The notes: generated from the sequence alone by a model not told the origin. DNA of 64,000 nt from Thermoleophilia bacterium (GCA_040776965.1 JAXGZO010000001.1:593419-657418); one strand, 5' to 3'; counted from the stretch's first letter, positions 36,777-58,632 are shown. Translations and numbers: made by a program.

Positions 36777-36777
36777 G

Positions 36778-37920: not shown

Positions 37921-38046
37921 ATGACGGGCAGAGCAAAAGTAAGAGCGGGCGCTGAGGGGGTCACCTTCCCCACGGCGACCGCTTTTTTCTTTAGCTACTA
38001 TTATTTTACGAGCATCTGCCCGTCGGCGGAGGAGGTCCTGAGCTAG
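37921..38046 (+). CDS. Candidate 41-aa leader peptide MTGRAKVRAGAEGVTFPTATAFFFSYYYFTSICPSAEEVLS, with a control region of 4 Phe and 3 Tyr codons among 8
   Basis: Translated directly: ATG at 37921 and TAG at 38044-46. The run TTT TTC TTT AGC TAC TAT TAT TTT uses AT-rich codons in a GC-rich genome. It lies between aroC and the DAHP synthase gene. Confidence 0.55.
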   Translation: MTGRAKVRAGAEGVTFPTATAFFFSYYYFTSICPSAEEVLS

Positions 38047-38076
38047 CCTAACGAAGCTTAAGCAGACCGACACCGA

Positions 38077-38116
38077 GGCCATGGGCAGACCGTAGAGTCG
38101 CCCGTGGCCTTTTTTG
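38077..38116 (+). terminator. Intrinsic terminator/attenuator: 10-bp stem GGCCAUGGGC...GCCCGUGGCC followed by UUUUUUG
   Basis: Inverted repeat at 38077-86 and 38100-09 plus a T6 run (38110-15). It sits 60 nt upstream of the DAHP synthase ATG and 31 nt downstream of the leader-peptide stop. Confidence 0.6.
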
Positions 38117-38178
38117 TTGTCTCGGTACGGAACCCTTGACCGGTATGCGCCGGTCGGCCCCCGAGGGAGGAGAGAGAG

Positions 38179-39086
<908 letters not shown>

Positions 39087-39090
<4 letters not shown>

Positions 39091-40232: not shown

Positions 40233-41062
40233 GTCAGACGGTCGAGAGCGGCGTGGTGGTGGGCCTGATCGGCGGGCGAGGCAGCATGGGGCGCTGGTTG
40301 GAGCAGCGGCTGGTGCACGCCGGCTGCCGGGTGCTCGTCGCCGACGTCTGCGAGGGCCCCGTAAAGCCGGAGTTCGTGGCCGACTGCCAGATCATCGTTG
40401 TAGCTGTACCCATCAGCGCCGTGGAGGAGGTGATGGCCGAGATTGGCCCATACACCCGCCCCGACGGTCTCGTTATGGACATCGCCTCGCTTAAAGAGGC
40501 TCCCCTCGCGGCTATGCTCAAGCACGCCCGCGGCGAGGTGGTGGGGTGCCACCCCCTGTGCGGGCCGACGGTCGACCAACTCGAGGACCAGATCGTGTTT
40601 CTCTGCGAGGGGCGAGGCGAGCGTTGGCGGGGGTGGGTGGAGCGGTTTTGGGAGAGTCAGGGGGCGAGGGTGGTGGAGATCGCCCCCGAGCGTCACGATC
40701 GGCTTATGGCCGTGGTGCAGAGCCTGCGCCACCTTCTGCTGTACGGCTTGGGCGATGGCTTACGCCAGCTGGGGTTCGACCTCAACGACCTGGAGCTGGC
40801 CGGTCCGCGGTTTCGCTCGCTGATGGAGTTGCTCCAGCGGCAAGTCGAGCAGCCTCCCTCGCTCTACGCCGAGCTCGCCCTCGGGAACCCGCACGTTGCG
40901 CAGGCGCTTGAGGCGCTCACCCTCGGTTTTGAGGACGTAAAGTCGACCCTGGCACGGCGTGACCGCCGGGGGCTAGAGGAGACGATGGCACGCGTTGAAG
41001 GCTGGAGCCGAGCTCTGGTTGAGCCCGAGGCGCCTAGGCCAAGAAGCGCATCCAGCGGATAA
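40229..41062 (+). CDS. tyrA: Prephenate/arogenate dehydrogenase
   Basis: Rossmann GLIGGRGSMG and a prephenate dehydrogenase core. GTG at 40229 is 7 nt after GGGGAG. Confidence 0.88.
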   Translation: MSQTVESGVVVGLIGGRGSMGRWLEQRLVHAGCRVLVADVCEGPVKPEFVADCQIIVVAVPISAVEEVMAEIGPYTRPDGLVMDIASLKEAPLAAMLKHARGEVVGCHPLCGPTVDQLEDQIVFLCEGRGERWRGWVERFWESQGARVVEIAPERHDRLMAVVQSLRHLLLYGLGDGLRQLGFDLNDLELAGPRFRSLMELLQRQVEQPPSLYAELALGNPHVAQALEALTLGFEDVKSTLARRDRRGLEETMARVEGWSRALVEPEAPRPRSASSG

Positions 41063-41929: not shown

Positions 41930-43024
41930 CTACCGCCGCGTGCGACCGCCCGCTCCGTCGCCCACACTGCGCCCCTGCGAGGCGAGCAGCGCGAGGAGGC
42001 TCTCGTTGATGGCGTCGGCGGTCTCGTGGGCGGCGGCCTTCTGCGGGTAGATTTCGTACTTCGCTCGCTCCGGTGCGGGGGTGAGGTTGGGCATGATCAC
42101 GTTGGCGCCGCGAAGGAGGCCGTGAGTCCTGCCCGTACTCCGCTTAAGCAGCGAGAGCGCCGTGGTGGCCGGGAGGTTCGCGTCGGGGCGCACGAGGCGG
42201 GTGAGCGCGATGACCTTGCAGGTCGCGAGCTCGGTGTTAGGCGCCTGGTCGGCGGGCCAGTCGTCGCTCGCGGTGCGGCGTGCGAACTCGTGGCCGAGCG
42301 GCGTATCGGGGTGGGGGAGGTAGGGGCCGATGCCGATCATGTCCATGTCGGTGCTGCGGAAGAGCTCGATGTCGTCGGCGATGGAGGCGTAGGTTTGGCC
42401 GGGGAGGCCGACCATGATGCCGGTCCCCGTCTCGTAGCCGAGCTCCTGAAGGCGGGCGAGGATCGCGAGGCGGTCGCTCACGCGCCCCGGGAGGTCGGGG
42501 TGGATGCGGCGGTAGAGCTGCTCGTCGGAGGTCTCGAAACGCAGGAGGTAGCGGTCGGCGCCGGCCTCACGCCAGAGTGAGAGGTCGGCGTCTGAGCGCT
42601 CGCCAAGGCTGAGGGTGACGGCGAGCTCCGTCTCCTGGCGGAGGCGCCGCACGACGCGGGCGACCCAGTCGGCGGCGAGGCCGTAGTCCTCGCCGGCTTG
42701 GAGCACTACGGTGCCGTACTTGTACGCGCGTGCGCGGTGCGCGCACGCGAGGATGTCGTCGGCGGACATGCGGTAGCGCTCGACCGCGCGGTTGCCCGCC
42801 CGGATGCCGCAGTACGCGCAGCGCCGCACGCAGTGGTTTGAGATCTCGATGAGCCCGCGGAGGTGCACCGCGTCGCCCACGGTGCGGCGGCGTGTGTCGT
42901 CGGCCGCCCGCCAGAGCTGCTCAAGGCGGGTTTCGTCGCGCTCGCGGAGCCAGCGCTCGATCTCCTCGTGGGTGAGGGCGTCGCCGACGCCGATGGCCGG
43001 GCTCGCCTGCGGTCGCCCGGTCAT
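41930..43024 (-). CDS. hydE: [FeFe]-hydrogenase maturase HydE (radical SAM)
   Basis: CVRRCAYCG radical-SAM cluster in a biotin-synthase-like fold. ATG at 43024 overlaps the hydF stop (ATGA). Confidence 0.9.
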   Translation of the reverse strand: MTGRPQASPAIGVGDALTHEEIERWLRERDETRLEQLWRAADDTRRRTVGDAVHLRGLIEISNHCVRRCAYCGIRAGNRAVERYRMSADDILACAHRARAYKYGTVVLQAGEDYGLAADWVARVVRRLRQETELAVTLSLGERSDADLSLWREAGADRYLLRFETSDEQLYRRIHPDLPGRVSDRLAILARLQELGYETGTGIMVGLPGQTYASIADDIELFRSTDMDMIGIGPYLPHPDTPLGHEFARRTASDDWPADQAPNTELATCKVIALTRLVRPDANLPATTALSLLKRSTGRTHGLLRGANVIMPNLTPAPERAKYEIYPQKAAAHETADAINESLLALLASQGRSVGDGAGGRTRR

Positions 43025-44322
43025 CAGCACGGATCGCTTGCCGGCGCGTCGCCTGCGGTCGCCGCCGGCGAGCGGCCGGAGCGCCCCTCGCCCGCCGCGT
43101 GCATCGCCGCGAGGGCCGCCGGGAAGGGCTCGAGCGCTCGCTCGAGGATGCCGAGGCTGAAGGCGATCACGAGGCCGTAGTTGGTGAGGGGTACGCCGGC
43201 TTGTTTGCAGCGCAACACCCTGCGGAGCATCGCCTTGCGGTTAAAGGTGCAGCCGCCGCAGTGCACGATGAGGTCCCACTGTGAGGGGTCCTCGGGGAAG
43301 TCGTGGCCCTGCACGTGCTCTATTTCGAGCTCGCCGCCGACGTACTGCGCGAGCCACCGCGGGATCTTGACGCGTCCGATGTCCTCGGCGATGGGGTGGT
43401 GGCTGCAAGCCTCGGCGATGAGCACGCGGGAGCCCGGCTTGAGGTTGTCGATCGCGAGCGCGCCCTCCACCTGGCTCGTGAGGTCTCCCTTAAAGCGGCT
43501 GAAGAGGATGCTGAAGCTGGTGAGGGGGACCCCCGCCGGGGTGGCGGCCGCGACCTCCTCGAAGGCCTGCGAGTCGGTGATGACCAGCTTGGGCGGGCCC
43601 GTGAGCTGCGCCAGCGCGTAGTGCAGGTCGCGGTCCTTAACCATGAGCGCCAGGGCGTCGTTGTCGATGAGGTCGCGGATCGACTGCACCTGGGGGAGGA
43701 TCAGCCGGCCGCGCGGTGCCTCTTTGTCGATGGGCACCACGAGGACGGCGAGGTCGCCGGGGGCCACGAGGTCGCCGAGGATCGTGGGGTTGTCGATAAA
43801 GTCCGCGGGGGTGCTGTCGAGTAGCGCTTGGCGGAACTCGAGCACCCCTTTGCCCTCGGCGGCGACGGTGGAGACGGGCGTGAGCCCGAGCTCTTGCAGG
43901 CGGGGTATCGGCGGCGGCTGCGTTACCACGTCCGCCTTGTTGGCCACGACGACCGCGGGGATACCGCGCTCCTGGAACTCGTCGAGGATGCCGTCTTCGT
44001 ACGCCCCCCAGGTGCCCGCCTCGGTGACGAGGACGCCGAGATCCGTGCGGTCGAAGACCTGCAGGGTGCGCCGCGCGCGGAGCTCTCCGAGCGCGCCGAC
44101 ATCGTCGATGCCGGCGGTGTCGATAAAGAGCACCGGGCCGAGGGGGAGCAGCTCCATCGGCTTCTCCACCGGGTCGGTGGTGGTGCCGGCGAAGTCGGAG
44201 ACGATGGAGACCTGTTGGCGTGTGATGGCGTTAAGCAGGCTGCTTTTGCCCACGTTGCGACGGCCGAAGAGGCCGATGTGAAGCCGCATCCCCCGCGGCG
44301 TATCCATGAGGCCCGGTTGCAT
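43024..44322 (-). CDS. hydF: [FeFe]-hydrogenase maturation GTPase HydF (alternative starts at 44307 or 44289)
   Basis: G1 GRRNVGKSS, the G3/G4 motifs, and the C-terminal CxH...HCGGC cluster-binding motif. Confidence 0.9.
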   Translation of the reverse strand: MQPGLMDTPRGMRLHIGLFGRRNVGKSSLLNAITRQQVSIVSDFAGTTTDPVEKPMELLPLGPVLFIDTAGIDDVGALGELRARRTLQVFDRTDLGVLVTEAGTWGAYEDGILDEFQERGIPAVVVANKADVVTQPPPIPRLQELGLTPVSTVAAEGKGVLEFRQALLDSTPADFIDNPTILGDLVAPGDLAVLVVPIDKEAPRGRLILPQVQSIRDLIDNDALALMVKDRDLHYALAQLTGPPKLVITDSQAFEEVAAATPAGVPLTSFSILFSRFKGDLTSQVEGALAIDNLKPGSRVLIAEACSHHPIAEDIGRVKIPRWLAQYVGGELEIEHVQGHDFPEDPSQWDLIVHCGGCTFNRKAMLRRVLRCKQAGVPLTNYGLVIAFSLGILERALEPFPAALAAMHAAGEGRSGRSPAATAGDAPASDPC

Positions 44323-44617: not shown

Positions 44618-46021
44618 TTAGCAGAGCACGTCGCGTTGTCCGGAGCGGACGCGGTCGACCATCTTCTGGGTGTGGGCGGCGCGCACGGAGTCCATCTCGC
44701 CGATCTTGTGCGCGATAAGGCGTTCGCCGACCTCGCGCGTCTCGGGATCGCCGTAGTCGAGTAGGTACTCGAGGAAGGTGCTGATGGCGTTGGGGTCGCA
44801 GTGGTGCTTAATGTCGCCCGGCTTGGCGAGATCCATAAAGTCCATGCCGGTGCGGCCGAGCCGGTAGCACGCCGTGCAGAAGGAGGGGACGTAGCCGAGC
44901 TCCGCGATGTCGTGGATGACCTCGTTGAGCGAGCGGTGGTCGCCCAGTTGGAACTGGGCGGCGTCGAACCGCTCGTCCTCCTCGTACCCGCCGGGGTTGG
45001 TGCGGCTGCCGGCGGAGATCTGGCTGACGCCGAGGGCGAAGGTCTCCCGGCGGATGTTCGCCGTCTCGCGGGTGCTCATGATGAGGCCCGTGTAGGGCAC
45101 GGCGAGCCGGAGGATCGCGACGATCTTGCGGAAGTCGACGTCGCTCACCGGCTGCGGCGGTTCGCTCGCCATCTCCGAGCCGGAGGCCGGCTCGAGGCGC
45201 GGCACGCTGATCGTGTGTGGGCCCACGCCGTAGGCGCGCTCGAGCTCGCGGATGTGCTGCATCATGGCGAGGATCTCGAAGCGCCAGTCGAAGAGGCCGA
45301 AGAGGACGCCGATGCCGACGTCGTCGATGCCCGCCTCCATGGCGCGGTGCATACCGGTGACGCGCCAGTCGTAGTTGCGCTTCTTGCCGCCGAGGTGGAC
45401 GTTGCCGTAGGTGCCGCGGTGGTACGTCTCCTGGAAGAGCTGGAAGGTGCCGATGCCGGTGGCCTTGAGCTCTTTGAAGTCCGCCACCGAGAGCGGCGCG
45501 ATGTTGACGTTAACGCGGCGGATCTCGCCGTTGTCGCGCTTTACATCGTAAATGGTCTCGATGGCGTCGAGGACGTACTGGAACCCCTGCTTGGGGTAGG
45601 ACTCCCCGGCGACGAGCAGCACGCGCTTGTGGCCTTCGTCCACGAGCACCTCGATCTCGCTGCGGATCTCCTCCTGCGTGAGCGCGCGCCGCTGGAGCTC
45701 CTTGTTGCGCGCGCGGAAGGCGCAGTAGAGGCAGTCGTTAGAGCAGAGGTTGCTGATGTAGAGCGGGGCGAAGAGCACGAGTCGCGCCCCGTAGATCGCG
45801 TCTTTGACGTCGCGGGCGGCGGCGAAGAGCTCGGCGAGGAGCTCCGGGTCGCTGATGGAGGTGAGGATGGCGACCTCGTCCATCTCCAGGCCGCCCAGCT
45901 CGCGTGCCTTCGCGAGGATCTCGCGCACGAGCCCCGCATCTTTCTTAGTCGCCGCCTCGAGGGCTTCGGCGACGCGGCTTTCGTCGATGAATGAACCGGA
46001 TTCGGCGGGTTCGGTCTCCAT
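44618..46021 (-). CDS. hydG: [FeFe]-hydrogenase maturase HydG (radical SAM tyrosine lyase)
   Basis: N-terminal CSNDCLYC and C-terminal CTACYRLGRTGMDFMDLAKPGDIKHHCDPN (CX2CX22C). RBS GAAGGAG. Confidence 0.92.
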   Translation of the reverse strand: METEPAESGSFIDESRVAEALEAATKKDAGLVREILAKARELGGLEMDEVAILTSISDPELLAELFAAARDVKDAIYGARLVLFAPLYISNLCSNDCLYCAFRARNKELQRRALTQEEIRSEIEVLVDEGHKRVLLVAGESYPKQGFQYVLDAIETIYDVKRDNGEIRRVNVNIAPLSVADFKELKATGIGTFQLFQETYHRGTYGNVHLGGKKRNYDWRVTGMHRAMEAGIDDVGIGVLFGLFDWRFEILAMMQHIRELERAYGVGPHTISVPRLEPASGSEMASEPPQPVSDVDFRKIVAILRLAVPYTGLIMSTRETANIRRETFALGVSQISAGSRTNPGGYEEDERFDAAQFQLGDHRSLNEVIHDIAELGYVPSFCTACYRLGRTGMDFMDLAKPGDIKHHCDPNAISTFLEYLLDYGDPETREVGERLIAHKIGEMDSVRAAHTQKMVDRVRSGQRDVLC

Positions 46022-46112: not shown

Positions 46113-47885
46113 CTAGACGGTCTGCTTCTCGGTGTAGTTGGTGTGGAGCAGTTCGTGTGAGATGTGGCCGCACGGTGCCCCGAGGTACTCCTCGTAGAGC
46201 TTGGCGACGGCCGGGTTTTCGTGTGACTTGCGCAGCTCGCGGCCCTCGTCCTCGCGGAAGATCGCCGCCGTGCGGGCCAGGCGAACCTCGTCGGTCGTGA
46301 AGCGCGGCTGGCCGCCGCCGCCGATGCAGCCACCGGGGCAGGTCATGATCTCGATGAAGTGGTACTCCGCCTCGCCGGCTTTGACCTGCTCGATGACCTT
46401 CTGTGCGTTGACGAGGCCGTGGGCCACGGCGACCTTGAGCTCCGCGCCCTCGAGGAAGGCCCAGTCGCCCTTCGCCCCCTCGATCTTAACCGACGCGGTC
46501 TTGACGCCGTCGAGGCCGGCGATGGGCTCGACGTGGAGGTTGGGGAAGGGGAACGGCACCTGGGTGACGATCTCCCACGCCGTGCGCAGGGCCGCCTCCA
46601 TAACGCCGCCGGAGTTGGCGAAGATGTCGGCGGCGCCGGTGCTGATGCCCAACGGCGCGTCCATCTCCTCGTCGGGGAGGTTGCGGAAGTCGATGCCCGC
46701 CTGCTTGATGAGCGTGCCGAGCTCGCGGGTGGTGAGCACGATGTCCACGTCGCGGGCGCCGCTGTCGTTCATCTCCGGGCGCGCCGCCTCGAACTTCTTG
46801 GCGGTGCAGGGCATGATCGAGACGACCACCATATCTTGCGGCTCCACGCCGATCTTCTTGGCGTAGTACGTCTTGGCGACGGCCCCGAACATCTGCTGCG
46901 GCGACTTGCAGGTGGAGAGGCAGTCGAGCATGTCGGGGTTGAAGTGCTCCATGTAGTTGATCCAGCCGGGGGAGCAGCTGGAGAATTGCGGGAGCGCGAC
47001 CTTCTCGCCGTCGACCAGGGCCTTCTTGAGGCGCAGGAGGAGCTCCGTGCCCTCCTCCATAATGGTGAGGTCGGCCGAGAAGTTGGTGTCGAACACGGCG
47101 TCGAAGCCGAGGCGCCGCAGGGCGGCGGTCATCTTGCCGGTCACGAGCGTGCCCGGCTCGTAGTCGAAGCACTCGCCGAGCGCGGCGCGGATGGCCGGCG
47201 CGGTCTGCACCACGACCGTCTTGGTGGGGTCTTCGAGTGCCGCCCAGACCTGGTCGATCTGGCTGCGCTCCGTGATGGCGCCCACGGGGCAGACGGCCGC
47301 GCACTGGCCGCACTGCACGCAGACCACGTCGCTGAGGTTTTGGGAGAAGGCCGGGCCGATCACGGTGGTGAAGCCGCGGCCCTGCGCGAAGAGCGCGCCG
47401 ACCCCTTGGACCTCGTTGCAGACGGTGACGCAGCGGCGGCAGGCGACGCATTTGCCGGTGTCGCGTACGAGCGCCGGCGTGCTGGCCTCGACCACTTTGC
47501 GGGTCCTCTCGCCCTCGTAGGGGATCTCCTTGACCCCGAGGGTGGCGGCGAGGCTGCGGAGCTCGCAGTCCTCCGAGCGGTCGCACACTTGGCAGTCGCC
47601 GTCGTGCTCCGAGAGGAGGAGCTCGACCACGGTGCGGCGGCCGTTGCGTGCTCTGGCGCTGTTGGTTTTAACGACCATACCGTCGGTGGCGGGCTGGCTG
47701 CACGAGGCGACCAGCGTGCGGGCGCCCTCGACCTCGACGAGACAGACCCGGCACGCGCCGATGCATTGAAGGTCTTCGAGGTAGCAGAGGGTGGGGATGT
47801 GGATCCCCGCTTGGCGAGCGGCCTGGAGCACCGTAGCGCCCTCAGGGACCTCGACCTTGATGTTGTCAATGGTGAGGATTGGCAT
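46113..47885 (-). CDS. hydA: [FeFe]-hydrogenase catalytic subunit HydA (N-terminal 2Fe-2S + His-ligated 4Fe-4S + 2x4Fe-4S ferredoxin domains + H-cluster domain)
   Basis: H-cluster motifs MPCTAKKFE (L2) and EIMTCPGGCIGGGGQP (L3). The L1 motif reads FSSCSPGW instead of the canonical FTSCCPxW. Confidence 0.92.
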   Translation of the reverse strand: MPILTIDNIKVEVPEGATVLQAARQAGIHIPTLCYLEDLQCIGACRVCLVEVEGARTLVASCSQPATDGMVVKTNSARARNGRRTVVELLLSEHDGDCQVCDRSEDCELRSLAATLGVKEIPYEGERTRKVVEASTPALVRDTGKCVACRRCVTVCNEVQGVGALFAQGRGFTTVIGPAFSQNLSDVVCVQCGQCAAVCPVGAITERSQIDQVWAALEDPTKTVVVQTAPAIRAALGECFDYEPGTLVTGKMTAALRRLGFDAVFDTNFSADLTIMEEGTELLLRLKKALVDGEKVALPQFSSCSPGWINYMEHFNPDMLDCLSTCKSPQQMFGAVAKTYYAKKIGVEPQDMVVVSIMPCTAKKFEAARPEMNDSGARDVDIVLTTRELGTLIKQAGIDFRNLPDEEMDAPLGISTGAADIFANSGGVMEAALRTAWEIVTQVPFPFPNLHVEPIAGLDGVKTASVKIEGAKGDWAFLEGAELKVAVAHGLVNAQKVIEQVKAGEAEYHFIEIMTCPGGCIGGGGQPRFTTDEVRLARTAAIFREDEGRELRKSHENPAVAKLYEEYLGAPCGHISHELLHTNYTEKQTV

Positions 47886-47902: not shown

Positions 47903-50900
47903 TTACGAGCAATACTTGCCGTAGTCGCAACGCAGGCAGCGTTTCGCCTCGGCCACGGCGACGGGGGCGGCCCAGCAGAGCTCGACCTCGTCGAAGGACG
48001 AGACGCGCTGCTCGCGGGGCAGCTCCTCGACCGCCGCGCGGTTGTACTCGACCGGGTCGGCGTCGGGGTCGTAGGAGGTTTGCACCTCGGTCTCACGGCG
48101 CCAGAAGGCGTGATTGGCGCCGGTGAGGTATTCGTCGATCGAGGCGGCCGCTCGTTCGCCGGCCCCGATGGCCTCGACGACCGAGGAGGGGCCGGTGGCC
48201 GCATCGCCGCCGGCGAAGAGCCAGTCCGCGGAGGTACGGCCCGTCTGGCGGTCGGTGACGAAGTAGCCGCGGCGGTCGAGCTCGACATCGCAGTCGCCCG
48301 TGAGCGGATCTGCGTCGAGCCACTGGCCGATTGCCGCGATGACGGTGTCGGCCTCCACCACGAACGAGGGGTTCGCGCTGGCGACCGGGCGGCGACGGCC
48401 GCTCTTGTCGTAGTCGCCGAGGGTCATCTCGTTGCAGCGAACGCCGATGACGTTGCCGTCGGCGTCGCGGAGGATCTCCTCCGGCGCCGTGAGCGTGAGC
48501 ACCTGGATGCCCTCGAGGTCGGCGGCGTCGACCTCCTCCGCCCACGCCGGCATCTCCACCCGCGTGCGGCGGTAGAGGATGCGTACCTCCTCGGCACCGA
48601 GACGCAGGGCGGTACGGGCGGCGTCGATAGCCGCGTTGCCGCCGCCGATAACCGCGACCTTTTTGCCCATCGGAGCGGAGCCCGTGAGGTTGTACTGCTT
48701 GAGGAAGGAGAGCCCGTCGTACACGCCGGGGCCGTCCTCGCCGGGGACGCCGATCGTGCTGCCCTGCGGGGCGCCGACCGCGAGGAAGACGGCCTCGTAG
48801 CCGTCGGCCTTGAGGCTCTCGAGCGAGAAGTCGCGCCCGAGCGCCTTGCCGAGCTCGATCGTGGTGCCCATGCGCTCGATCATCTCGATCTCGCGCTCAA
48901 GCTCGTTGCGGGGCAGGCGGTACGCCGGGATGGCTTGAACGAGCATGCCGCCGGCTTTGTCCTCCGCCTCGAAGATCGTCGGCTTATAGCCGAGTCGGGC
49001 GAGGAAGAAGGCGCAGCTCAGGCCGGCGGGGCCGCCGCCGATAATGGCAACCTTACGGGCGGCGTTCGCCTCGTTCTCGATGACGTCGGGGAGAAGCGCC
49101 TCTTGCTCCTGCTCCACCATGAAGCGCTTGACGTGGCGAATGGCGACGGCCGAGTCGATCCCGGCGCGTTGACACTTGCTCTCGCAGGGGTGGAAGCACA
49201 CGCGGGCGCAGATGCTGGCCAACGGGTTGCGGTTGCGGTGGACCCTGAGGGCCTCGTCGTACCGCTCCTCGCCGACCAGCGAGACGAAGGCCGGGATGTT
49301 GACGCTCGCCGGACAGGCGTTGTTGCAGCGGGCCAAGAACATGGAGGCGCAGACGCCGGCCTCGCAGTACTTGTCGCGGATGTGGGCCTCGTACTCGTGG
49401 CGGAAGTGGCGGATCGTCGAGAGGACCGGGTTCGGGGCGGTTTGACCGAGGCCGCAGAGGGCGGTCTCTTGAATGGCCTCGCCGAGCGCGATGAGGCGCT
49501 CTATGTCGCCCTCCTCGCCCTTGCCGTTGGTGATGCGCTCGATGATCTCGAGCATCCGCTTGGTGCCGACACGGCAGGGCGGGCACTTGCCGCAGCTCTC
49601 CTCCTGGGTGAACTCCAGGAAGAAGCGGGCGATGTCGACCATGCAGGTGTCTTCGTCCATGACGATGATGCCCCCGGAGCCCATAATGGCGCCGAGCTCC
49701 TGCAGGGTTGCGTAGTCGACGGGTACGTTGAGGTGCTCCCTCGGGATGCACCCGCCAGAGGGGCCACCGAGCTGGGCGGCTTTGTAGCTCTTGCCGTCTG
49801 GAATGCCGCCGCCGACCTCGTAGATGAGCTCGCCGAGCTGCATGCCGATCGGGACCTCCACGAGGCCCGTGTGCTGCACGTTGCCGCCGAGCGCGAAGAC
49901 CTTCGTGCCCTTACTCTTCTCGGTGCCGGTGCTCGCGTACCACTCGGCGCCCTTGAGGATGATGGGCGCGATGTTGGCGAACGTCTCGACGTTATTGAGT
50001 ACGCTGGGCTTGCCCCAGAGGCCCGAGACGGCCGGGAACGGCGGGCGCGGGCGGGGCTCGCCGCGATGGCCCTCAATAGAGGTCATCAGCGCGGTCTCCT
50101 CGCCGCAGACGAAGGCGCCGGAGCCCATGCGGATCTCGAGGTCGAAGCTAAAGCCGCTGCCCATGATGTCGTCGCCGAGCAGGCCGTACTCGCGCGCCTG
50201 CCCGAGGGCGTGCTCGAGGCGCTCAACGGCGAGCGGGTACTCGGCGCGCACGTACACGTAGCCCTGATGAGCGCCGATCGCGTAGGCGCCGATCGTCATG
50301 CCCTCGATCAGCGAGTGCGGGTCGCCCTCGAGAACCGAGCGGTCCATGAAGGCGCCAGGGTCGCCTTCATCGGCGTTGCAGAGGATGTACTTAACCTCGC
50401 TGTCCTGCTGCTGGGTGAACTTCCACTTGAGGCCGGCGGGGAATCCGGCGCCGCCGCGGCCGCGCAGGCCGCTCGCGAGGACCTCCTCAACCACGTCGGT
50501 GGGGGACATCTCGGTGAGCGCCTTGGCGAGCGCCTGGTAGCCCTCCCGGGCGATGTACTCGTCGATGTTCAGCGGGTTAATGACGCCGGAGTTGCGGAGC
50601 ACGATCTTGACCTGGCGGTTGAAGAACGGGATGTCGTCCATCTCGGCCTGGGTCTTCTCGGTGCCCGGCGCGTGGCTCACGAGGCGCTCGACGATCCGGC
50701 CCTTGAGGAGGTGCTCCTCGACGATCTCCGGCACATCGTCCACGCTGATAGTTTGGTAAAAAACGCCATCGGGGTAGATAAGGGCGACCGGACCCTGGAC
50801 GCACGGACCAAGGCAGCCGGTCTCGATAACTTCGATTTCGTCGGAGAGGCCGCGCTTCGCGAGCTCGGCGCGGACGGCCTTGCTCAGCTCCAGCGCGCCG

Positions 50901-50956
50901 GAGGCGATGCAACCGCCGCCGGTGCAGATCAAAAAGTGACTTCTCACATCAGCCAT
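47903..50956 (-). CDS. hydB: HydB (NuoF-like flavoprotein subunit) fused to a C-terminal GltD/NfnB-like NAD(P)H:FAD oxidoreductase module (1017 aa)
   Basis: N-terminal thioredoxin-like 2Fe-2S, then the NuoF core (GLRGRGGAGFP, CGKCPPCRVGT), then 2x[4Fe-4S], then two Rossmann motifs (VAIIGGGPAGLSCA; VAVIGGGNAAIDAA). Confidence 0.9.
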   Translation of the reverse strand: MADVRSHFLICTGGGCIASGALELSKAVRAELAKRGLSDEIEVIETGCLGPCVQGPVALIYPDGVFYQTISVDDVPEIVEEHLLKGRIVERLVSHAPGTEKTQAEMDDIPFFNRQVKIVLRNSGVINPLNIDEYIAREGYQALAKALTEMSPTDVVEEVLASGLRGRGGAGFPAGLKWKFTQQQDSEVKYILCNADEGDPGAFMDRSVLEGDPHSLIEGMTIGAYAIGAHQGYVYVRAEYPLAVERLEHALGQAREYGLLGDDIMGSGFSFDLEIRMGSGAFVCGEETALMTSIEGHRGEPRPRPPFPAVSGLWGKPSVLNNVETFANIAPIILKGAEWYASTGTEKSKGTKVFALGGNVQHTGLVEVPIGMQLGELIYEVGGGIPDGKSYKAAQLGGPSGGCIPREHLNVPVDYATLQELGAIMGSGGIIVMDEDTCMVDIARFFLEFTQEESCGKCPPCRVGTKRMLEIIERITNGKGEEGDIERLIALGEAIQETALCGLGQTAPNPVLSTIRHFRHEYEAHIRDKYCEAGVCASMFLARCNNACPASVNIPAFVSLVGEERYDEALRVHRNRNPLASICARVCFHPCESKCQRAGIDSAVAIRHVKRFMVEQEQEALLPDVIENEANAARKVAIIGGGPAGLSCAFFLARLGYKPTIFEAEDKAGGMLVQAIPAYRLPRNELEREIEMIERMGTTIELGKALGRDFSLESLKADGYEAVFLAVGAPQGSTIGVPGEDGPGVYDGLSFLKQYNLTGSAPMGKKVAVIGGGNAAIDAARTALRLGAEEVRILYRRTRVEMPAWAEEVDAADLEGIQVLTLTAPEEILRDADGNVIGVRCNEMTLGDYDKSGRRRPVASANPSFVVEADTVIAAIGQWLDADPLTGDCDVELDRRGYFVTDRQTGRTSADWLFAGGDAATGPSSVVEAIGAGERAAASIDEYLTGANHAFWRRETEVQTSYDPDADPVEYNRAAVEELPREQRVSSFDEVELCWAAPVAVAEAKRCLRCDYGKYCS

Positions 50957-50972: not shown

Positions 50973-51344
50973 TCAGGTCTTGATCAGGTAGTCGTCGACG
51001 GGGGAGCCGCCCACGAGGTGGGTTTCGACGATAGCGTGGACCTTAGCTTTGTCGAGGAGGCCGTAGCGATACGTGGTGCCGTCGGCCATCGTGATAGTCG
51101 CCATCGGCTCCTGCTCGCAGAGGCCGGCGCAGCCGCTCTGATGGAGGCTTACCGAGGAGGCGTCGGCGGCGGCGAGCTCGGTTATAAAGGTGGCGACGAT
51201 CTCGCGTGCGCCGGCCGCGATGCCGCACGTGCCCATGTGCACGGTCACCTGAACGTCTTTGCGGCCACCCCGTAGATCGATGTCGGCTTTTGCCTTTTCG
51301 GCGAGTGCCCTGAGCTGCTCGGGGCTCGTGATTTTATCGGCCAT
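50973..51344 (-). CDS. Small thioredoxin-like [2Fe-2S] ferredoxin (HndB-like hydrogenase subunit)
   Basis: 123-aa protein with four Cys (CGIAAG...CAGLCEQEP) in a hydrogenase operon context. Confidence 0.7.
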   Translation of the reverse strand: MADKITSPEQLRALAEKAKADIDLRGGRKDVQVTVHMGTCGIAAGAREIVATFITELAAADASSVSLHQSGCAGLCEQEPMATITMADGTTYRYGLLDKAKVHAIVETHLVGGSPVDDYLIKT

Positions 51345-51346
51345 GG

Positions 51347-51883
51347 TTACGCGCTCCTTTCGGCCGGGGTCGCCACGTCGGTGTACTGAGCGATGATCTC
51401 GTTAACTCGCTTTGGCTTGACGCGGTGGTGGACGTCCTCGTCGACCATGATGACCGGCGCGAGGCCGCAGGCGCCGAAGCAGCGGCCGATCTCAAGGGAG
51501 AACTCGAGATCGTCGGTTGTGCCGCCAACGTCGATGCCGAGGTCTTTTTTAAAGGCCTCGAGGACGGCGACGCCGCCCCTTACGTAGCACGCCGTGCCGA
51601 GGCAGATGCGGATGAGGTGCTTGCCGCGGGGCACCGTAGTGAAGAATGAGTAGAAGCCGACGACGCCGGCGACCTCGCTGTACGGTTTGCGGAGCTTCTT
51701 GGCGATGTGCTTGAGGGCGACCTCCGGCAGGTAGCCGAAGATACCCTGGGCGAGCTGCAGCACGGGGATGAGTGCTCCCGGCTTGTCACGATACTCGTCG
51801 ATGACCGCGTCGAGTCGTGCCAGGAGCTCCTCCTCGGTGAGCTCTTCGGCGCAGCACGCGCACGATTTCACCTGTTCAGTCAT
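51347..51883 (-). CDS. hydC: NuoE-like [2Fe-2S] subunit of the hydrogenase (HydC/HndA)
   Basis: Signature CLGTACYVRGG...CFGACGLAPV. Confidence 0.9.
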   Translation of the reverse strand: MTEQVKSCACCAEELTEEELLARLDAVIDEYRDKPGALIPVLQLAQGIFGYLPEVALKHIAKKLRKPYSEVAGVVGFYSFFTTVPRGKHLIRICLGTACYVRGGVAVLEAFKKDLGIDVGGTTDDLEFSLEIGRCFGACGLAPVIMVDEDVHHRVKPKRVNEIIAQYTDVATPAERSA

Positions 51884-51933: not shown

Positions 51934-52428
51934 TTAGGGCAGCGCTTGCTGGTAGGCGACGAGTGCCGGGAGCTTGGCGGGCAGCTCGCTGCTACGCAGG
52001 CTCGTCAGCTCGTCGTCGTTGCGGAGTGAGATGCGGAACTCCACCTCGGGGTGAGTGGCCACCACGACGAGAAGGCTGGTGGCCACATCGCCGAGCGGTG
52101 GACGGTCGACGTTGTTAAGGCTCATATGGACGCGCACGGATGCACCGCCGAGCTCCTCGGAGCGGCCGAGTGCGAGTCCGCCACCGCTCGCCTCGGCCGC
52201 TTGTCGAAAGAGGCTGAGGCCGAGGCCGGTTTTTTTGGTCGGTTTCGTCGTGAAGAAGGGGTTGAGGGCCTCGCTGGGCTGCACCGGAAGGCCCGGCCCG
52301 TTGTCGTCGATAGCCATAGTGAGGCTGTCGCTGGCGTGATCGGCCGCGATGTCGACGGCGATGATCGTCGCTCCGGCGCGGAGCGAGTTCTCGAGAATAT
52401 CGAGGAGGTAGAGCGAGAGATCATGCAT
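51934..52428 (-). CDS. Stand-alone histidine-kinase-like ATPase (HATPase_c) protein
   Basis: N-box/G-box-like DDNGPGLP and GLGLS motifs. No HisKA/DHp domain or phospho-acceptor His region. Confidence 0.75.
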   Translation of the reverse strand: MHDLSLYLLDILENSLRAGATIIAVDIAADHASDSLTMAIDDNGPGLPVQPSEALNPFFTTKPTKKTGLGLSLFRQAAEASGGGLALGRSEELGGASVRVHMSLNNVDRPPLGDVATSLLVVVATHPEVEFRISLRNDDELTSLRSSELPAKLPALVAYQQALP

Positions 52429-53161
52429 CGTCGACGCTCCTGCCGTGCTCGCCGCGCAGTGCGGCGGCGAGCTCCGTGAACGACGGATTGGCCACGTGCA
52501 GGGTGGTGCGTACGGCGCCGATATCGCTGAGGTAATGAGCGTCTGATGAGTGCAGGATCGGCAGGCCGTGGATGCGGAACTCCTCCTCGGCGGGGGAGCC
52601 GGGCGCGATGTGGCGGGAGAGCTCTACGGCGTCGAAGCCCGCGTCTGTTGGGAAGAAGCCGAGCTGGCCGATGGCGCCGAACGTTTTGCGGTCGATATGC
52701 GCGGCGACCGCGAGGCCGCTGTGACGGTGGATGAGCGCTGCCGTGTCGTTGATGTCGAGGAGGGTGGCCATCGCGAGGGCCTTCTCCTCTGTGGCGAGGA
52801 GCTCGCCGGCGGCGCTGAGGACCGACTGGGTGCCGAAGAACGCCTCGTAGCCGTCGTCGACGGGCGGTAGCGACGCCCCCGCCTCCGCGGCCGCCGCCTC
52901 CGCCGCCTCCGCGGTGGGGAAGAGGCCGACGACGTGGCACTCCTCGGCCGAGGTGATCTCCATGCCGGCGAGCACGACGAGGTAGTCGCCGGCCGCCTCT
53001 TGCACGGCAGCGACGTTGCGCGCACTGTTGTGGTCGCAGATCGCGATCATCCCGAGGCCTTCAGCCAGCGCTCGCTCGACGATAGCCGCCGGGGTCATAC
53101 TCTCGTCCGCGCAGGGTGAGAGCGCCGTGTGAATATGGAGATCGGCGAAACAGTGGTTCAC
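52421..53161 (-). CDS. PHP-domain protein (hydrogenase-operon associated)
   Basis: Motifs DLHIHTALSPC, ICDHN and HSSDAHY. Confidence 0.8.
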   Translation of the reverse strand: MNHCFADLHIHTALSPCADESMTPAAIVERALAEGLGMIAICDHNSARNVAAVQEAAGDYLVVLAGMEITSAEECHVVGLFPTAEAAEAAAAEAGASLPPVDDGYEAFFGTQSVLSAAGELLATEEKALAMATLLDINDTAALIHRHSGLAVAAHIDRKTFGAIGQLGFFPTDAGFDAVELSRHIAPGSPAEEEFRIHGLPILHSSDAHYLSDIGAVRTTLHVANPSFTELAAALRGEHGRSVDDA

Positions 53162-53508
53162 ACATGGCTTCCTTTGACGCCGAGTTCGTAGAGGCGGCCG
53201 ACGGTGGTGAACGTATCGCAGGGTGAGATGTAGAGCTTAATACCTACGGAGCGCGCCTTAGCGACGACGTCGTCTTCCGGCTGGCGGCCGCTCGCGAAGA
53301 CGACGGCCGCGAGGTTGGCGTGGCTGGCCACCGCGATCACGTTGAGGTGCACCTGCAAGGTGACGAGGACGCCACCCTTGGGGCCGTGGGCGAGGACGTC
53401 GCTTAAGAGGTCGGAGGCGTAACCCTGCGTGATCTCGGCGTCGCCGCCGGCGAGCTCCGGGGTGAGCTCCGTGAGGGTCAGTTCGTTGGCGAGGTACTCG
53501 AGATTCAT
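53158..53508 (-). CDS. DRTGG-domain protein
   Basis: 116-aa protein in a hydrogenase operon context, consistent with the DRTGG family. The assignment is by pattern only. Confidence 0.6.
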   Translation of the reverse strand: MNLEYLANELTLTELTPELAGGDAEITQGYASDLLSDVLAHGPKGGVLVTLQVHLNVIAVASHANLAAVVFASGRQPEDDVVAKARSVGIKLYISPCDTFTTVGRLYELGVKGSHV

Positions 53509-54266
53509 AGGGGGATCTCCTTTAGGGGACGCTCCAGCGCCGAGCAGACCTCATAGTTCTCGCAGAGATCGAGTGCGTTGAGGGACTCGAGTGCGACGGC
53601 GTTCTCTCCGTCGTCGTCGACGTGGGAGAAGAAGACGGCGGACTCGAGCGCGGCGATGATATCGATGTACTCGACGAAGATGTCGTCGGGAAGGTGGAGG
53701 GGGATGGGCGAGAAACTCACGATGCTCTTAATGCCGGCGCCGACGAGCGCCTCTGCGGCGCTCTGCGCCGCCGATGCCGGAAGCGCTAGGACCGCTGTCT
53801 CAATGCCCGAGTCGTGCACGACCTCCTCGAGCGCGGAGGTGTGGAAGCAGGGGCAGCCGTGGAGAGAGGAGCCGACAACCGCCGGGTTGGTGTCGAAGGC
53901 GGCGGTGATAGACGCGGAGGAGAGCGTCGTTGAGGCGTGTGCGAGGATAGCCCGCCCGAGGTTGCCGACGCCGACCAACGCGATACGGTGCTGCTGCTCG
54001 TCGTCGAGGAACGCGCTCATGCTCGTGATGCACGCGGCGACGCCGTACCCCTTGCTGGGGCTGCCCGAATACCCGATAACCATGAGGTCGCGACGGACCT
54101 GAGCCGCGCTCACCGCCGCGTGCCGCGCGAGCTCGTGGGAGTAAACATGGGCGGTGCCTTCCTCGCGGAGGGCGAGCAAGATGCGGCGGTAGCGACTTAT
54201 GCGAGAAACAGTCTTTCTGGATACCACCGCAGCTCCTGAATCGGCGAGGGGATCGCAAGAGAGCAC
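53505..54266 (-). CDS. rex: Redox-sensing transcriptional repressor Rex (start possibly at an internal GTG giving VVSRKTVSRISRY...)
   Basis: Winged-helix N-terminus (SRYRRILLAL) and NADH-binding Rossmann (IALVGVGNLGRAI). Confidence 0.85.
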   Translation of the reverse strand: MLSCDPLADSGAAVVSRKTVSRISRYRRILLALREEGTAHVYSHELARHAAVSAAQVRRDLMVIGYSGSPSKGYGVAACITSMSAFLDDEQQHRIALVGVGNLGRAILAHASTTLSSASITAAFDTNPAVVGSSLHGCPCFHTSALEEVVHDSGIETAVLALPASAAQSAAEALVGAGIKSIVSFSPIPLHLPDDIFVEYIDIIAALESAVFFSHVDDDGENAVALESLNALDLCENYEVCSALERPLKEIPL

Positions 54267-54270
54267 ACGC

Positions 54271-54286
54271 TGTGAAATTCATCACG
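54271..54286 (+). promoter_or_regulatory. Candidate Rex operator half-palindrome TGTGAAATTCATCACG just upstream of rex
   Basis: Matches 10 of 12 defined positions of TGTGAA-N4-TTCACA. Confidence 0.3.
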
Positions 54287-54349
54287 ATTATCGCTGTCGC
54301 GCTCTCGTGGTGTCAAATGCGGGCGTTGCCTTTTCGAGCGGTACAATGA

Positions 54350-55771
<1,422 letters not shown>

Positions 55772-57345: not shown

Positions 57346-58632
57346 ATGAAAGTAAATATGGAAAAAAATACCATTAGAAAATACCATCGAATTGAATTAC
57401 CAGCAAAAGTAAGAATAAATGAAAAATGGCATAATGTAAAAGATTGGTCTCTTGGTGGATTCATGGTAATGGATGTCACCGATGTTTTTGAAAAAGAGAT
57501 AAATTATGACGTAAAGCTTCTATTGCCATTTGATAGCGTAGAGATAGTAGTAGATGTTACAGCTAAAGTAGCTTGGTCGAGAAATGACAGAGCTGGGTTT
57601 TCTTTTGTAAACCTTAGCTCGAAAGCTAAGAATATACTAAAGACTTATCTAAAGGATAGCATAGAGGGAAATCTAGGTGAAATAGACGGTGTTTTAGCGT
57701 ATGTAGATGCACAAGAAATACCACTCCCTATAGAAACTCCAATGACCTCTAATGAAGAGATAGATTTTCAGAGGTCGTTCTATAAAAGAAGCATTCGCTA
57801 CATTATTATAGCATTGGCAGTAGTTGCAATTGCACTAATTATTGTGTTCTCAACTATGACAAGAGCGACAAGTTTAAGGGCAGTAGTATCATCAGCAAAA
57901 GTCAACGTAGATGCTCCATTTGATGGAATGGTAACAAATATATATGTTAAAAGTGGAGACTCTGTAAAAAAGAATCAAATTTTAGCCATATTAGATAATG
58001 GTGATATAAAGAGAAGCGTGGAAACACAGCGATATGCGGTTTTAGCTTCAGAGAAAGAGCTACATGAAGCAAAAGCATTACTAAGAATGGCTAAAAATGG
58101 TAAGTATGTATACAGTAAATATTCTGCAAGCGCAAGTTTATCAATTCTTAATTCAGAAGTTGGAGTTAAGGCTCAGAAGCTCAATGAGGAAAAATCTAGA
58201 TTACGAGAGCTTCTCAGTGAGCTCGACAAGGCAAATCTACGGAGTCCTTGTGATGGCTTTGTTTATGTCTGTAAGCCCTCTATAGGATCAAGCGTTCGCA
58301 AATACGATCAATTCTTTATACTCCAGCCTAACGAAAATGCAAATATGTACATACTTGCTCGATTTACATTTGACGCAGCTAAGGGTATTTCACCTGGAAG
58401 TACAGCAGATGTATTTATTCCATCGCTGGGTAAAAGAGTAAAGGGAACGGTTCGATCTATGGGAACCCAGGCACTTGGTGGCGCAGAGGGATCTCTTGAT
58501 TTAGAGATAAGCACACAAGAGGTTCCAGTTGCTATTGTATTGAATGACAATAGTTTGAATTTGAAAAGTGGTATCTCAGCAATAGTAGATGTAAGAACTC
58601 CAATTAAAGCAAGGTTAAAGCGCATACTGTGA
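57346..58632 (+). CDS. PilZ domain - TM - HlyD-like membrane-fusion-protein fusion (Alg44-like c-di-GMP-binding co-polymerase architecture)
   Basis: PilZ motifs R(K)xxxR (IRKYHR) and D/NxSxGG (DWSLGG). Single TM. Biotin-lipoyl-like MFP hairpins (DAPFDGMVTNIYVKSGDSV; SPCDGFVYV). Coding sequence is ~35% GC. Confidence 0.8.
   Translation: MKVNMEKNTIRKYHRIELPAKVRINEKWHNVKDWSLGGFMVMDVTDVFEKEINYDVKLLLPFDSVEIVVDVTAKVAWSRNDRAGFSFVNLSSKAKNILKTYLKDSIEGNLGEIDGVLAYVDAQEIPLPIETPMTSNEEIDFQRSFYKRSIRYIIIALAVVAIALIIVFSTMTRATSLRAVVSSAKVNVDAPFDGMVTNIYVKSGDSVKKNQILAILDNGDIKRSVETQRYAVLASEKELHEAKALLRMAKNGKYVYSKYSASASLSILNSEVGVKAQKLNEEKSRLRELLSELDKANLRSPCDGFVYVCKPSIGSSVRKYDQFFILQPNENANMYILARFTFDAAKGISPGSTADVFIPSLGKRVKGTVRSMGTQALGGAEGSLDLEISTQEVPVAIVLNDNSLNLKSGISAIVDVRTPIKARLKRIL

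Follow-up and report, generated by a model that had tools for sequence, protein, structure and literature searches.

A Bfu-type [FeFe]-hydrogenase locus encoding a HydB flavoprotein with a predicted GltD-type NADP(H) module in place of its ferredoxin-like domain

The closest described relatives of the gene analyzed here belong to the Bfu family of electron-bifurcating enzymes, which is defined by conservation of all BfuBC cofactors (PMC9304861). In the solved Bfu enzymes, the bifurcating site consists of a flavin mononucleotide (FMN) and the clusters B1 and C1, and the C1-bearing C-terminal domain of BfuC swings from the FMN to clusters B3/B4 (PMC12018979, PMC10482914), from which ferredoxin is reduced while wedged between the C-terminal domain of BfuC and the ferredoxin-like domain of BfuB (PMC12018979). 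A hinge His is conserved in nearly every B subunit of the family and absent from nonbifurcating homologues, and the hinge site binds Zn in [FeFe] enzymes and in Nfn-Bfu (PMC12018979). A variant without B3/B4 and with a GltD domain is not discussed in PMC9304861; it was mentioned in silico in 2018 as an “enlarged beta-subunit with GltD domain” in the genome of Vallitalea guaymasensis L81 (PMC6163223) and in 2024 as “sub-type I BfuABDC” of Hydrogenedentota (mSystems; PMC11406978), where B3/B4 are replaced by a DPD_II domain and a domain for flavin adenine dinucleotide (FAD) and NAD(P). Sub-type I homologues were listed in several phyla in the latter report, and a second bifurcating FAD center was speculated. 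Here we analyzed a gene of this architecture, a fusion of hydB with a gltD-like sequence at positions 47903 to 50956 on the minus strand of a 64,000-nucleotide stretch of DNA (the window) from a Thermoleophilia bacterium (GCA_040776965.1 JAXGZO010000001.1:593419-657418).

In the literature that we searched, we found in silico mentions of the fusion architecture only and no biochemical or structural characterization, and no chain in the PDB spans both fusion halves. The architecture itself is thus already described in silico. To these descriptions we add the assignment of the module to the StnC type (a circular permutation and an invariant Lys), a fixed spacing between hinge and module, the range of partner enzymes, and a genomic context that includes Rex and an NADP-specific glutamate dehydrogenase (NADP-GDH).

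The hydB::gltD fusion and its junction

The fusion gene and the segments of its product are located in the window as follows.

47903-50956, minus strand: hydB::gltD fusion, a single uninterrupted frame of 1017 residues
50657-50956, minus strand: residues 1-100, thioredoxin-like domain with the B5 [2Fe-2S] site (C11, C16, C48, C52)
49379-50578, minus strand: residues 127-526, NuoF core with the FMN/NAD(H) site GAFVCGEETAL and the B1 [4Fe-4S] site (C455, C458, C461, C501)
49349-49384, minus strand: residues 525-536, Bfu-specific hinge (H525, C531, C536, with C438), the B2/Zn site; Thr at the fifth-ligand position, 476
49100-49327, minus strand: residues 544-619, GltD-type Fer4_20/DPD_II domain for two [4Fe-4S] clusters (Cys 544, 548, 583, 587, 591, and 595, and Lys610)
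48116-49054, minus strand: residues 635-947, FAD Rossmann fold (GGGPAG, 640-645) and NADP(H) Rossmann fold (GGGNAA, 771-776; YRRT, 795-798)
47903-48031, minus strand: residues 976-1017 and stop codon, circularly permuted helix and C1007-x2-C1010, which completes the [4Fe-4S] pair

The original prediction, made from this DNA alone, had described a flavoprotein of 1017 residues without a stop between its halves. This was borne out by one intact open reading frame (ORF), which has its own ribosome-binding-site-like AGGTGA and is followed after 17 nucleotides by the start of hydA, itself preceded by AAGGAG, and by homologues in independent assemblies. All four Pfam domains that had been named were matched above gathering score, namely, Complex1_51K (residues 161 to 330), NADH_4Fe-4S (441 to 525), Fer4_20/DPD_II (529 to 619), and Pyr_redox_2 (635 to 933), as was SLBB (354 to 402); 2Fe-2S_thioredx (7 to 81) scored 24.7 bits, marginally below its cutoff of 24.8. 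NuoF models of NCBIfam matched residues 127 to 526, and GltD, NfnB, and YgfK-like models matched approximately residues 495 to 1012. The dinucleotide-fold motifs quoted in the prediction were present as GGGPAGL at 640 to 646 and VIGGGNAAIDA at 769 to 779, with YRRT at 795 to 798. A protein search recovered full-length fusion homologues in at least 120 protein clusters (1000 to 1060 residues, 68 to 100% identity), and a scan of GTDB species representatives yielded 41 complete full-length fusion loci and approximately 9 truncated by contig ends.

We compared the fusion with the solved HydB/BfuB chains of A. woodii (7q4v_B), T. kivui (8a6t_B), and A. mobile (7t2r_B) and with StnB (8oh5_B). Alignment covered the fusion from residue 1 to the hinge sequence HIRDKYCEAGVC (residues 525 to 536) and then stopped, at residues 536 to 545 against 7q4v_B, 8a6t_B, and 7t2r_B; against 7q4v_B, residues 1 to 536 were collinear at 818 bits. 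The first Cys motif past the hinge is the GltD-type CNNACP (544 to 549). Neither alignment nor motif searching detected a retained HydB ferredoxin-like domain (two CxxCxxCxxxCP motifs, B3/B4) in the fusion, and a Pfam scan of the cluster genes found no ferredoxin-like domain anywhere in the gene cluster. Furthermore, the distance from the last hinge Cys to the first GltD cluster Cys was exactly 7 residues in all 33 fusions matched by pattern, compared to exactly 12 residues from the hinge to the first B3 Cys in all 28 canonical HydBs of the same scan. From these alignments and motifs, we conclude that a predicted GltD-type module stands where HydB/BfuB otherwise carries its ferredoxin-like C-terminal domain (B3/B4) and that it is grafted 7 residues past the Zn hinge. 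The original prediction had counted a complete HydB with two [4Fe-4S] clusters and a module with two more; this was a double count, as the fusion has one such pair only and no CxxCxxCxxxCP motif.

Conservation was assessed across 42 full-length fusions with 46 to 100% identity. The four B1 Cys and the hinge residues C438, H525, C531, and C536 were present in every fusion of this set, and the B5 Cys were each retained in 38 to 42 of them. The fifth-ligand position of the hinge, which is Cys in the A. mobile NiFe enzyme, was Cys in 20 fusions and Thr in 15. The FMN/NAD(H) pocket, including GAFVCGEETAL, was nearly identical to that of the NAD-specific A. woodii HydB (343 bits over 215 residues) and had lower similarity to that of the NADP-specific T. 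kivui HydB (292 bits), a relative similarity which suggests that the FMN site uses NAD(H). Apart from B3/B4, the bifurcation hardware was intact, comprising the NuoF core, the FMN/NAD(H) pocket, B1, B5, the Zn hinge, and the C1 site of HydC.

The C-terminal half is, by its motifs and domain matches, a GltD/NfnB-superfamily module for FAD and NADP(H) with its own [4Fe-4S] pair. Its top match in the PDB was 9bov_A (376 bits), an NfnA-type subunit with a GltD module inside BfuA, ahead of TmNfnB (4ylf_B, 318 bits), 9n5u_A (317 bits), and StnC (8oh5_C, 314 bits); P. furiosus NfnL gave 279 bits and GltD 192 bits, and DPD also scored below TmNfnB. Identity of the module core to the StnC/NfnA type was 40 to 46%. 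Relative to NfnB and GltD, the module is circularly permuted: the helix and CxxC motif that open TmNfnB (residues 8 to 43) sit at the extreme C terminus of the fusion (976 to 1012, with RCLRC at 1006 to 1010), and the same permuted arrangement occurs in 9bov_A (approximately residues 540 to 568) and 8oh5_C. Lys610, within RHVKRF (607 to 612), aligns with K170 of StnC, within AQLKSF, at a position where TmNfnB and PfNfnL read LERF. In StnC, Lys170 is a strictly conserved and essential ligand of the proximal cluster that is Glu in NfnB, and structure and mutagenesis tied the Lys-for-Glu exchange and an altered Arg-N5 contact to the nonbifurcating FAD of StnC (PMC10482914). The permuted topology and Lys610 together tie the module to the Stn/NfnA type.

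These traits are shared by the family. The Glu ligand of the proximal [4Fe-4S] cluster, a trait of NfnB/NfnL, was absent from the fusions, as Lys610 was present in 42 of 42. Cluster Cys 544, 548, 587, 591, 595, 1007, and 1010 were likewise invariant, and Cys583 was retained in 41. The FAD and NADPH glycine motifs were conserved across the set, as were Y795 and R796 (42/42) and R797 (41/42) of a YRR(T/S) motif common to the NADPH-dependent TmNfnB, StnC, Csac NfnA, and Tsi NfnA. With the FAD and NADPH fingerprints GxGxxG, GxGxxA, and YRR present and conserved, the module is predicted to contain FAD and to be specific for NADPH, and an extra NADP(H) site in the hydrogenase complex is very likely. 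In a neighbor-joining tree of the module core with NfnB/NfnL as the outgroup, every fusion module fell into one clade with StnC, Csac NfnA, and Tsi NfnA. The module is therefore assigned, on sequence criteria, to the permuted, Lys-ligated StnC/NfnA type, a predicted nonbifurcating NADPH port, and not to the Glu-ligated NfnB type. Of the GltD/NfnB hallmark proposed in the original prediction, membership in the superfamily stands, whereas placement in the NfnB type proper does not. The presence of a Lys ligand is an argument for a cluster pair tuned to electrons at the level of NADPH, like that of Stn, and against one tuned to the level of ferredoxin, like that of NfnB.

The other predicted subunits of the complex are encoded on both sides of the fusion gene, where hydA, hydC, and an hndB-like gene were confirmed to adjoin it.

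51347-51883, minus strand: hydC/bfuC, NuoE-like, with the C1 [2Fe-2S] site ICLGTAC ... RCFGAC (C-x4-C ... C-x3-C)
50973-51344, minus strand: hndB/bfuD-like gene for a thioredoxin-fold protein with three conserved Cys (C40, C72, C76)
46113-47885, minus strand: hydA, [FeFe]-hydrogenase catalytic subunit with 2Fe-2S, His-ligated 4Fe-4S, two 4Fe-4S, and H-cluster domains and an SSU-like tail

HydC matched 2Fe-2S_thioredx over its full length (25 to 167, 161 bits). HydA matched the NCBIfam model FeFe_hydrog_A6 (“group A6”) at 877 bits against a cutoff of 765 and the Pfam families Fe_hyd_lg_C, Fe_hyd_SSU, Fer2_4, and NADH-G_4Fe-4S_3, and it contains the H-cluster motifs SSCSPGW, MPCTAK, and EIMTCPGGCIGG. 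We assign the complex as a Bfu-type group A3 [FeFe]-hydrogenase predicted to comprise HydA, HydB::GltD, HydC, and the HndB-like protein, with the fusion as its BfuB/HydB/HndC flavoprotein subunit. The order hydC-hndB-hydB-hydA is that of the tetrameric Hnd/BfuABDC enzymes and replaces the trimeric type proposed earlier. A 2Fe-2S cluster had also been ascribed to the HndB-like protein and was not confirmed: only C40, C72, and C76 were conserved in 48 homologues, and the Pfam match of 23.6 bits was below the gathering score of 24.8. In this protein, Met occupies the fourth-ligand position of thioredoxin-like [2Fe-2S] proteins, and position 36 varies among G, H, and C.

Proposed electron transfer through the predicted complex

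The reading that we tentatively favor, at slightly less than an even chance, is an H2:NAD(H)/NADP(H) enzyme in which NADP(H) takes the place of ferredoxin in a Bfu-type A3 complex. The usual task of the mobile C1 domain in HydC is to carry electrons from FMN to B3/B4 and on to ferredoxin; here, it would hand them to the GltD cluster pair, from which two electrons would pass to FAD and, as a hydride, onto NADP+; in reverse, electrons would enter from NADPH. The overall reaction would be 2 H2 + NAD+ + NADP+ <-> NADH + NADPH + 2 H+. With everything kept through the hinge and B3/B4 swapped at a fixed short spacing, a gated branch that ends in NADP(H) is the most economical reading, and the two electrons per cycle in the low-potential branch match the two-electron chemistry of FAD and NADP+. 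The original prediction had proposed an additional NADP(H) site in an enzyme that was either NADP linked or of four substrates (NADH, NADPH, ferredoxin, and H2). The site is retained and the four-substrate form as written is not, as the absence of the B3/B4 ferredoxin-delivery domain makes the NADP-linked alternative the likelier of the two.

Thermodynamic considerations provide a rationale for such coupling. With physiological potentials of approximately -280 mV for NADH and -380 mV for NADPH (PMC9304861), a Nernst calculation gave H+/H2 potentials of -296 mV at 10 Pa, -325 mV at 100 Pa, and -355 mV at 1000 Pa H2. The mean of NADH and NADPH, -330 mV, corresponds to approximately 150 Pa H2, compared to approximately 3 Pa for NADH alone. 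At syntrophic H2 pressures, such as 10 to 100 Pa, H+/H2 thus falls between NADH and NADPH, so that NADPH could pull NADH-dependent H2 formation up to approximately 150 Pa.

Several points weigh against NADP(H) in the place of ferredoxin. We infer all steps beyond the cofactor content, and the nucleotide specificity at both sites is predicted by motifs only. That the GltD clusters would lie within reach of C1 is an assumption, as an AlphaFold2 model of the whole subunit, built from a shallow alignment (predicted template modeling score, 0.47), left the orientation of the GltD module undefined. Under standard conditions, H2 can reduce NAD+ and NADP+ uncoupled, and the bifurcation hardware is not thermodynamically required. 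Ferredoxin could dock at the distal GltD cluster by analogy with NfnB/NfnL. From the regulatory context described below, the adjacency of an NADP-GDH gene is absent from the closest relatives of the locus, and a Rex-operator-like palindrome is insignificant alone, its position being only suggestive.

The distribution of the fusion extends well beyond the present lineage. The nearest loci (L001 to L006; loci recovered in our searches are numbered with the prefix L) are in metagenome-assembled genomes labeled Thermoleophilia or Actinomycetota, with 82 to 84% identity and the same operon, and a Hydrogenedentota homologue (L047) is 67 to 69% identical. Distant carriers were found in Nitrospiraceae, Verrucomicrobiota, Acidobacteria, Bacteroidota, Spirochaetes, Lentisphaerae, and Fibrobacterota and in Atribacteria, Armatimonadota, Chloroflexota, Desulfobacterota, Cloacimonadota, and Hydrogenedentota; Pelotomaculum terephthalicicum JT (L022), a cultured syntroph, also carries the fusion, and Syntrophus gentianae is another cultured carrier. 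A single origin of the fusion was not supported by trees of the two halves: canonical HydBs were nested among the fusions in the neighbor-joining tree of the N-terminal half, and the C-terminal half showed two identity tiers at similar divergence of the N-terminal half. These trees carry no support values and sampling was biased by the search patterns, so that they allow no firm conclusion on origin.

In all loci, hydC precedes the fusion, and the BfuA-type partner downstream varies. Most loci encode a full HydA at this position. An intact molybdopterin BfuA of the formate dehydrogenase type is encoded in L036 (10977-13724), L038 (10915-13710), and L041 (10951-14028), and a split version is encoded in L021 (11080-13791), L025 (11043-13787), L046 (10933-13728), and L023 (3394-6162). 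In each of these four split versions, an in-frame stop occurs approximately 80 residues into the molybdopterin domain, which resumes in the next ORF, and the protein is probably a UGA-selenocysteine FdhA. In L029 (11459-13843), L032 (3652-5996), and L043 (11033-13358), the fusion is followed by a short HoxU-like iron-sulfur protein and then by a GltB-type protein of 530 to 555 residues with the Glu_synthase (PF01645) FMN domain. L040 has a plain HoxU-like protein (11007-11795; 263 residues; Fer2_4 and Fer4) after the fusion and, following a second BfuC-BfuB pair, another HoxU-like protein (14045-15355) to which a glycine-cleavage H (lipoyl) domain is fused. As judged from their gene content, the sets in L029, L032, L043, and L040 may be uncharacterized Bfu-type enzymes with nonhydrogenase third substrates.

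Taken further, the NADP(H) reading becomes a broader proposal, for which we consider the chances clearly below even: a ferredoxin-independent Bfu enzyme in which the gated low-potential branch would end in FAD and NADP(H), protons would be the acceptor in a confurcation of NADH and NADPH or NAD+ and NADP+ the acceptors in a bifurcation of H2, and the same BfuBC core would also drive formate dehydrogenases and GltB-like enzymes as a general class of coupling module. At present, the definition of Bfu enzymes rests on a BfuBC core that always interacts with NAD(H) and ferredoxin; it would be extended by a widespread variant with its ferredoxin branch rewired to NADP(H). If the proposal is true, syntrophs and fermenters would be able to make H2 or formate from NADH at approximately 50-fold-higher H2 pressure by spending NADPH, and the fusion would be a natural experiment on a gated C1 shuttle with a two-electron flavin acceptor. 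Because such loci now carry the annotation “NuoF” or “bifurcating A3 hydrogenase,” the electron carriers given to them in metabolic models based on metagenomes are probably wrong. The 7-residue spacing from hinge to cluster, the proximal-cluster Lys, the C-terminal CxxC, and YRR can serve as markers for their classification.

An alternative that we regard as unlikely is a four-substrate enzyme to which ferredoxin still binds, either at the distal GltD [4Fe-4S] cluster or between the C-terminal domain of HydC and the GltD module. Such an enzyme would be a hydrogenase and an Stn-like transhydrogenase in one, with interconversion of H2, NAD(H), NADP(H), and ferredoxin. The distal [4Fe-4S] cluster of NfnB/NfnL is the natural ferredoxin exit in NfnSL (discussed in PMC10482914), ferredoxin wedges between BfuC and BfuB at their C-terminal domains in Tsi NfnABC without a dedicated site (PMC12018979), and the bifurcation hardware is conserved in the fusions except for B3/B4. 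However, the fusion has no counterpart of the domain that, in the sole experimental ferredoxin complex, provides B3/B4 and makes contact with ferredoxin, and the Lys ligand points to mid-potential tuning for NADPH input rather than to the Glu-ligated, low-potential cluster of NfnB. Furthermore, a canonical, ferredoxin-type cluster bearing B3/B4 adjoins the fusion cluster in some genomes (L008 and L034), which suggests that the two are nonredundant in function.

Doubtful to the same degree is an uncoupled dual-donor hydrogenase resembling the HydABC of Syntrophomonas wolfei, in which the GltD module would be a second, independent entry for NADPH without energetic coupling. HydB variants without B3/B4 are nonbifurcating, NADH-dependent enzymes (PMC5626996, as cited in PMC11406978); in addition, thermodynamics do not demand coupling, and an FAD of the StnC type is a plain converter between two-electron and one-electron transfer. 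Evidence that bears on this alternative came from four operons in which a second hydC and a truncated BfuB lie between the fusion and a single hydA (L018, 5332-7486; L019, 4733-6925; L024, 11377-13529; and L028, 11015-13183). These truncated BfuBs, of approximately 540 to 550 residues, end 4 to 14 residues past the Zn hinge without B3/B4, so that each operon encodes two BfuBC pairs and no ferredoxin-like domain. Unlike such BfuBs, the fusions keep B5 and an invariant, strictly spaced junction from hinge to cluster, which suggests continued use of the gated C1 route. Moreover, if NADPH could enter only via C1 and FMN, its entry would by construction be coupled to the state of the FMN/NAD site.

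Very unlikely, in our assessment, is a second bifurcating flavin, the idea raised by the authors of PMC11406978, in which the FAD of the GltD module would be an NfnB-like bifurcation center beside the FMN-FeS center. The module is homologous to NfnB (318 bits) and NfnL (279 bits). Its StnC-type identity (permutation and invariant Lys) argues against this idea: all 42 fusions have the Lys of StnC, whose FAD is nonbifurcating by structure and mutagenesis, where NfnB has Glu, and their modules group with StnC/NfnA and not with NfnB. Nor did we find an NfnA/NfnS-like partner ([2Fe-2S] and FAD) for a high-potential branch in the cluster, by Pfam domain of the cluster genes, or in 41 related loci screened with the window proteins. 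Finally, nothing favors an artifact of assembly or annotation in which a sequencing error merged adjacent hydB and gltD-like genes, which is virtually impossible given the continuous ORF, a junction invariant in spacing and sequence in 33 to 42 independent assemblies, and the at least 120 clusters of full-length homologues.

Operon and window context

The operon has the order rex–DRTGG-like–PHP–HATPase–hydC–hndB–hydB::gltD–hydA–hydGFE. Its remaining genes and the adjoining regulatory features are as follows.

54359-55771, plus strand: NADP-GDH gene, divergent from rex (Pfam ELFV; NCBIfam NF006929, 723 bits against a cutoff of 536)
54287-54316, minus strand: sigma-70-like promoter upstream of rex, TTGACA-18-GATAAT, 11 of 12 positions, a consensus match only
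54270-54287, no strand assigned: CTGTGAAATTCATCACGA, a weak palindrome resembling a Rex operator, located after the -10 box and before the start codon of rex
53505-54266, minus strand: rex, redox-sensing NADH/NAD+ repressor, first gene of the cluster (Pfam Put_DNA-bind_N and CoA_binding; NCBIfam NF003995, 184 bits against a cutoff of 126)
53158-53508, minus strand: DRTGG-like small protein of 116 residues (Pfam DRTGG, 22.3 bits, below the cutoff of 25.2)
52421-53161, minus strand: PHP-domain protein (Pfam), syntenic in L001-L006 and in canonical Clostridia operons
51934-52428, minus strand: stand-alone HATPase_c (histidine-kinase-like ATPase) protein (Pfam), syntenic
44618-46021, minus strand: hydG maturase (NCBIfam TIGR03955, 529 bits against 312)
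43024-44322, minus strand: hydF maturase GTPase (NCBIfam TIGR03918, 545 bits against 326)
41930-43030, minus strand: hydE maturase (NCBIfam TIGR03956, 302 bits against 255)

A rex gene is also located upstream of the fusion cluster in L001 to L006, L047, L044, L016, and L008. In the present locus, rex and the GDH gene share a 92-bp intergenic region (54267-54358). The promoter-like site upstream of rex is one of 3 observed in the region against 0.9 expected. The palindrome CTGTGAAATTCATCACGA has 3 mismatches to TTGTGAA-N4-TTCACAA, and three or more hits occurred in 3 of 100 shuffles. GDH-like genes beside the fusion were found in three other loci only (L048, L029, and L043) and in none of L001 to L006, so that we rejected GDH linkage as a family trait and consider it local context. 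The presence of Rex and NADP-GDH at this locus suggests a role in the disposal of NADH and NADPH from amino acid fermentation.

Homologues of the DRTGG-like protein occur in many fusion and canonical hyd loci, often in two copies. In HydA, the P1 motif at residues 302 to 308 is SSCSPGW, compared to the textbook TSCCP(x)W. The form (S/T)SCSP was found in 20 of 22 fusion-linked HydAs in our sample and in all 23 canonical and all 4 truncated-BfuB-linked HydAs; we therefore rejected it as specific to the fusion and regard it as a trait of the A3 clade.

Three other regions of the window were distinctive.

57346-61352, plus strand: two genes, for a PilZ-domain protein with a biotin-lipoyl-like/HlyD-like segment and for a GT2 glycosyltransferase of 907 residues with a pectate-lyase-like domain
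34940-41062, plus strand: aromatic amino acid cluster ending just before hydE (EPSP synthase, shikimate kinase, chorismate synthase, DAHP synthase, chorismate mutase-prephenate dehydratase, and prephenate dehydrogenase)
23190-28877, minus strand: three consecutive large genes, for proteins of 403 residues (no domain match), 705 residues (VWA), and 798 residues (AAA_5, dynein-related/MoxR-like)

In the first region, GC content at third codon positions is 0.26 to 0.35, compared to approximately 0.85 elsewhere in the window, and overall GC content falls to 0.37 at 58 to 60 kb; the region looks like a horizontally acquired island for a cyclic di-GMP-linked exopolysaccharide synthase. The third region includes an ATPase-VWA pair.

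Comparison with described systems

The present locus is most like sub-type I BfuABDC and the Vallitalea enzyme, with which it shares the replacement of B3/B4 by DPD_II and FAD/NAD(P) domains, the gene order C-D-B-A, and an M3a-type HydA. It differs in belonging to an uncultured lineage labeled Actinomycetota/Thermoleophilia, in having rex and the genes for the DRTGG-like, PHP, and HATPase proteins upstream, and in having hydGFE immediately downstream. Neither the permuted topology nor the Lys ligand nor any nonhydrogenase partner was noted in the reports of these systems (PMC11406978 and PMC6163223), which favored a second bifurcating FAD.

The same type of GltD module occurs together with a HydBC-like NuoF/NuoE core in the Bfu-type transhydrogenases, namely, S. 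ovata StnABC (8oh5), the C. saccharolyticus-type enzyme (9bov), and T. sibiricus NfnABC (9n5u). In these enzymes, the module is inserted in a NuoG-like BfuA after its [2Fe-2S] domain and serves the mid-potential branch; ferredoxin is reduced by a BfuB that has retained B3/B4. In the complex analyzed here, by contrast, BfuA is a true hydrogenase, and the module has taken the position of B3/B4 at the C terminus of BfuB.

The canonical HydABC/HndABCD enzymes (A. woodii, 7q4v; T. kivui, 8a6t; T. maritima, 7p5h; and D. fructosovorans Hnd) are collinear with and highly similar to HydA, HydC, and residues 1 to 536 of the fusion and share with the fusion cluster the FMN, B1, B5, the Zn hinge, and the accessory genes of the operon. 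Relative to them, the fusion lacks the ferredoxin-like domain with two CxxCxxCxxxCP motifs, which defines the ferredoxin branch, and gains a predicted FAD and NADP(H) site. NfnB/NfnL (T. maritima, 4ylf; P. furiosus, 5jca) and GltD (2vdc and 6s6s) have the same fold and the same cofactors (two [4Fe-4S] clusters, FAD, and NADPH) as the module. In NfnB, however, the N terminus is nonpermuted, the ligand is Glu, the partner is NfnA/S, and the FAD bifurcates, and GltD works with GltB; neither partner is encoded in the fusion cluster.

A last point of comparison is the nonbifurcating, NADH-dependent HydABC of S. wolfei, a ferredoxin-independent enzyme whose HydB likewise lacks B3/B4 (PMC5626996). 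The HydB of S. wolfei is simply truncated, whereas in the fusion the same position is filled by a predicted redox-active NADP(H) module.

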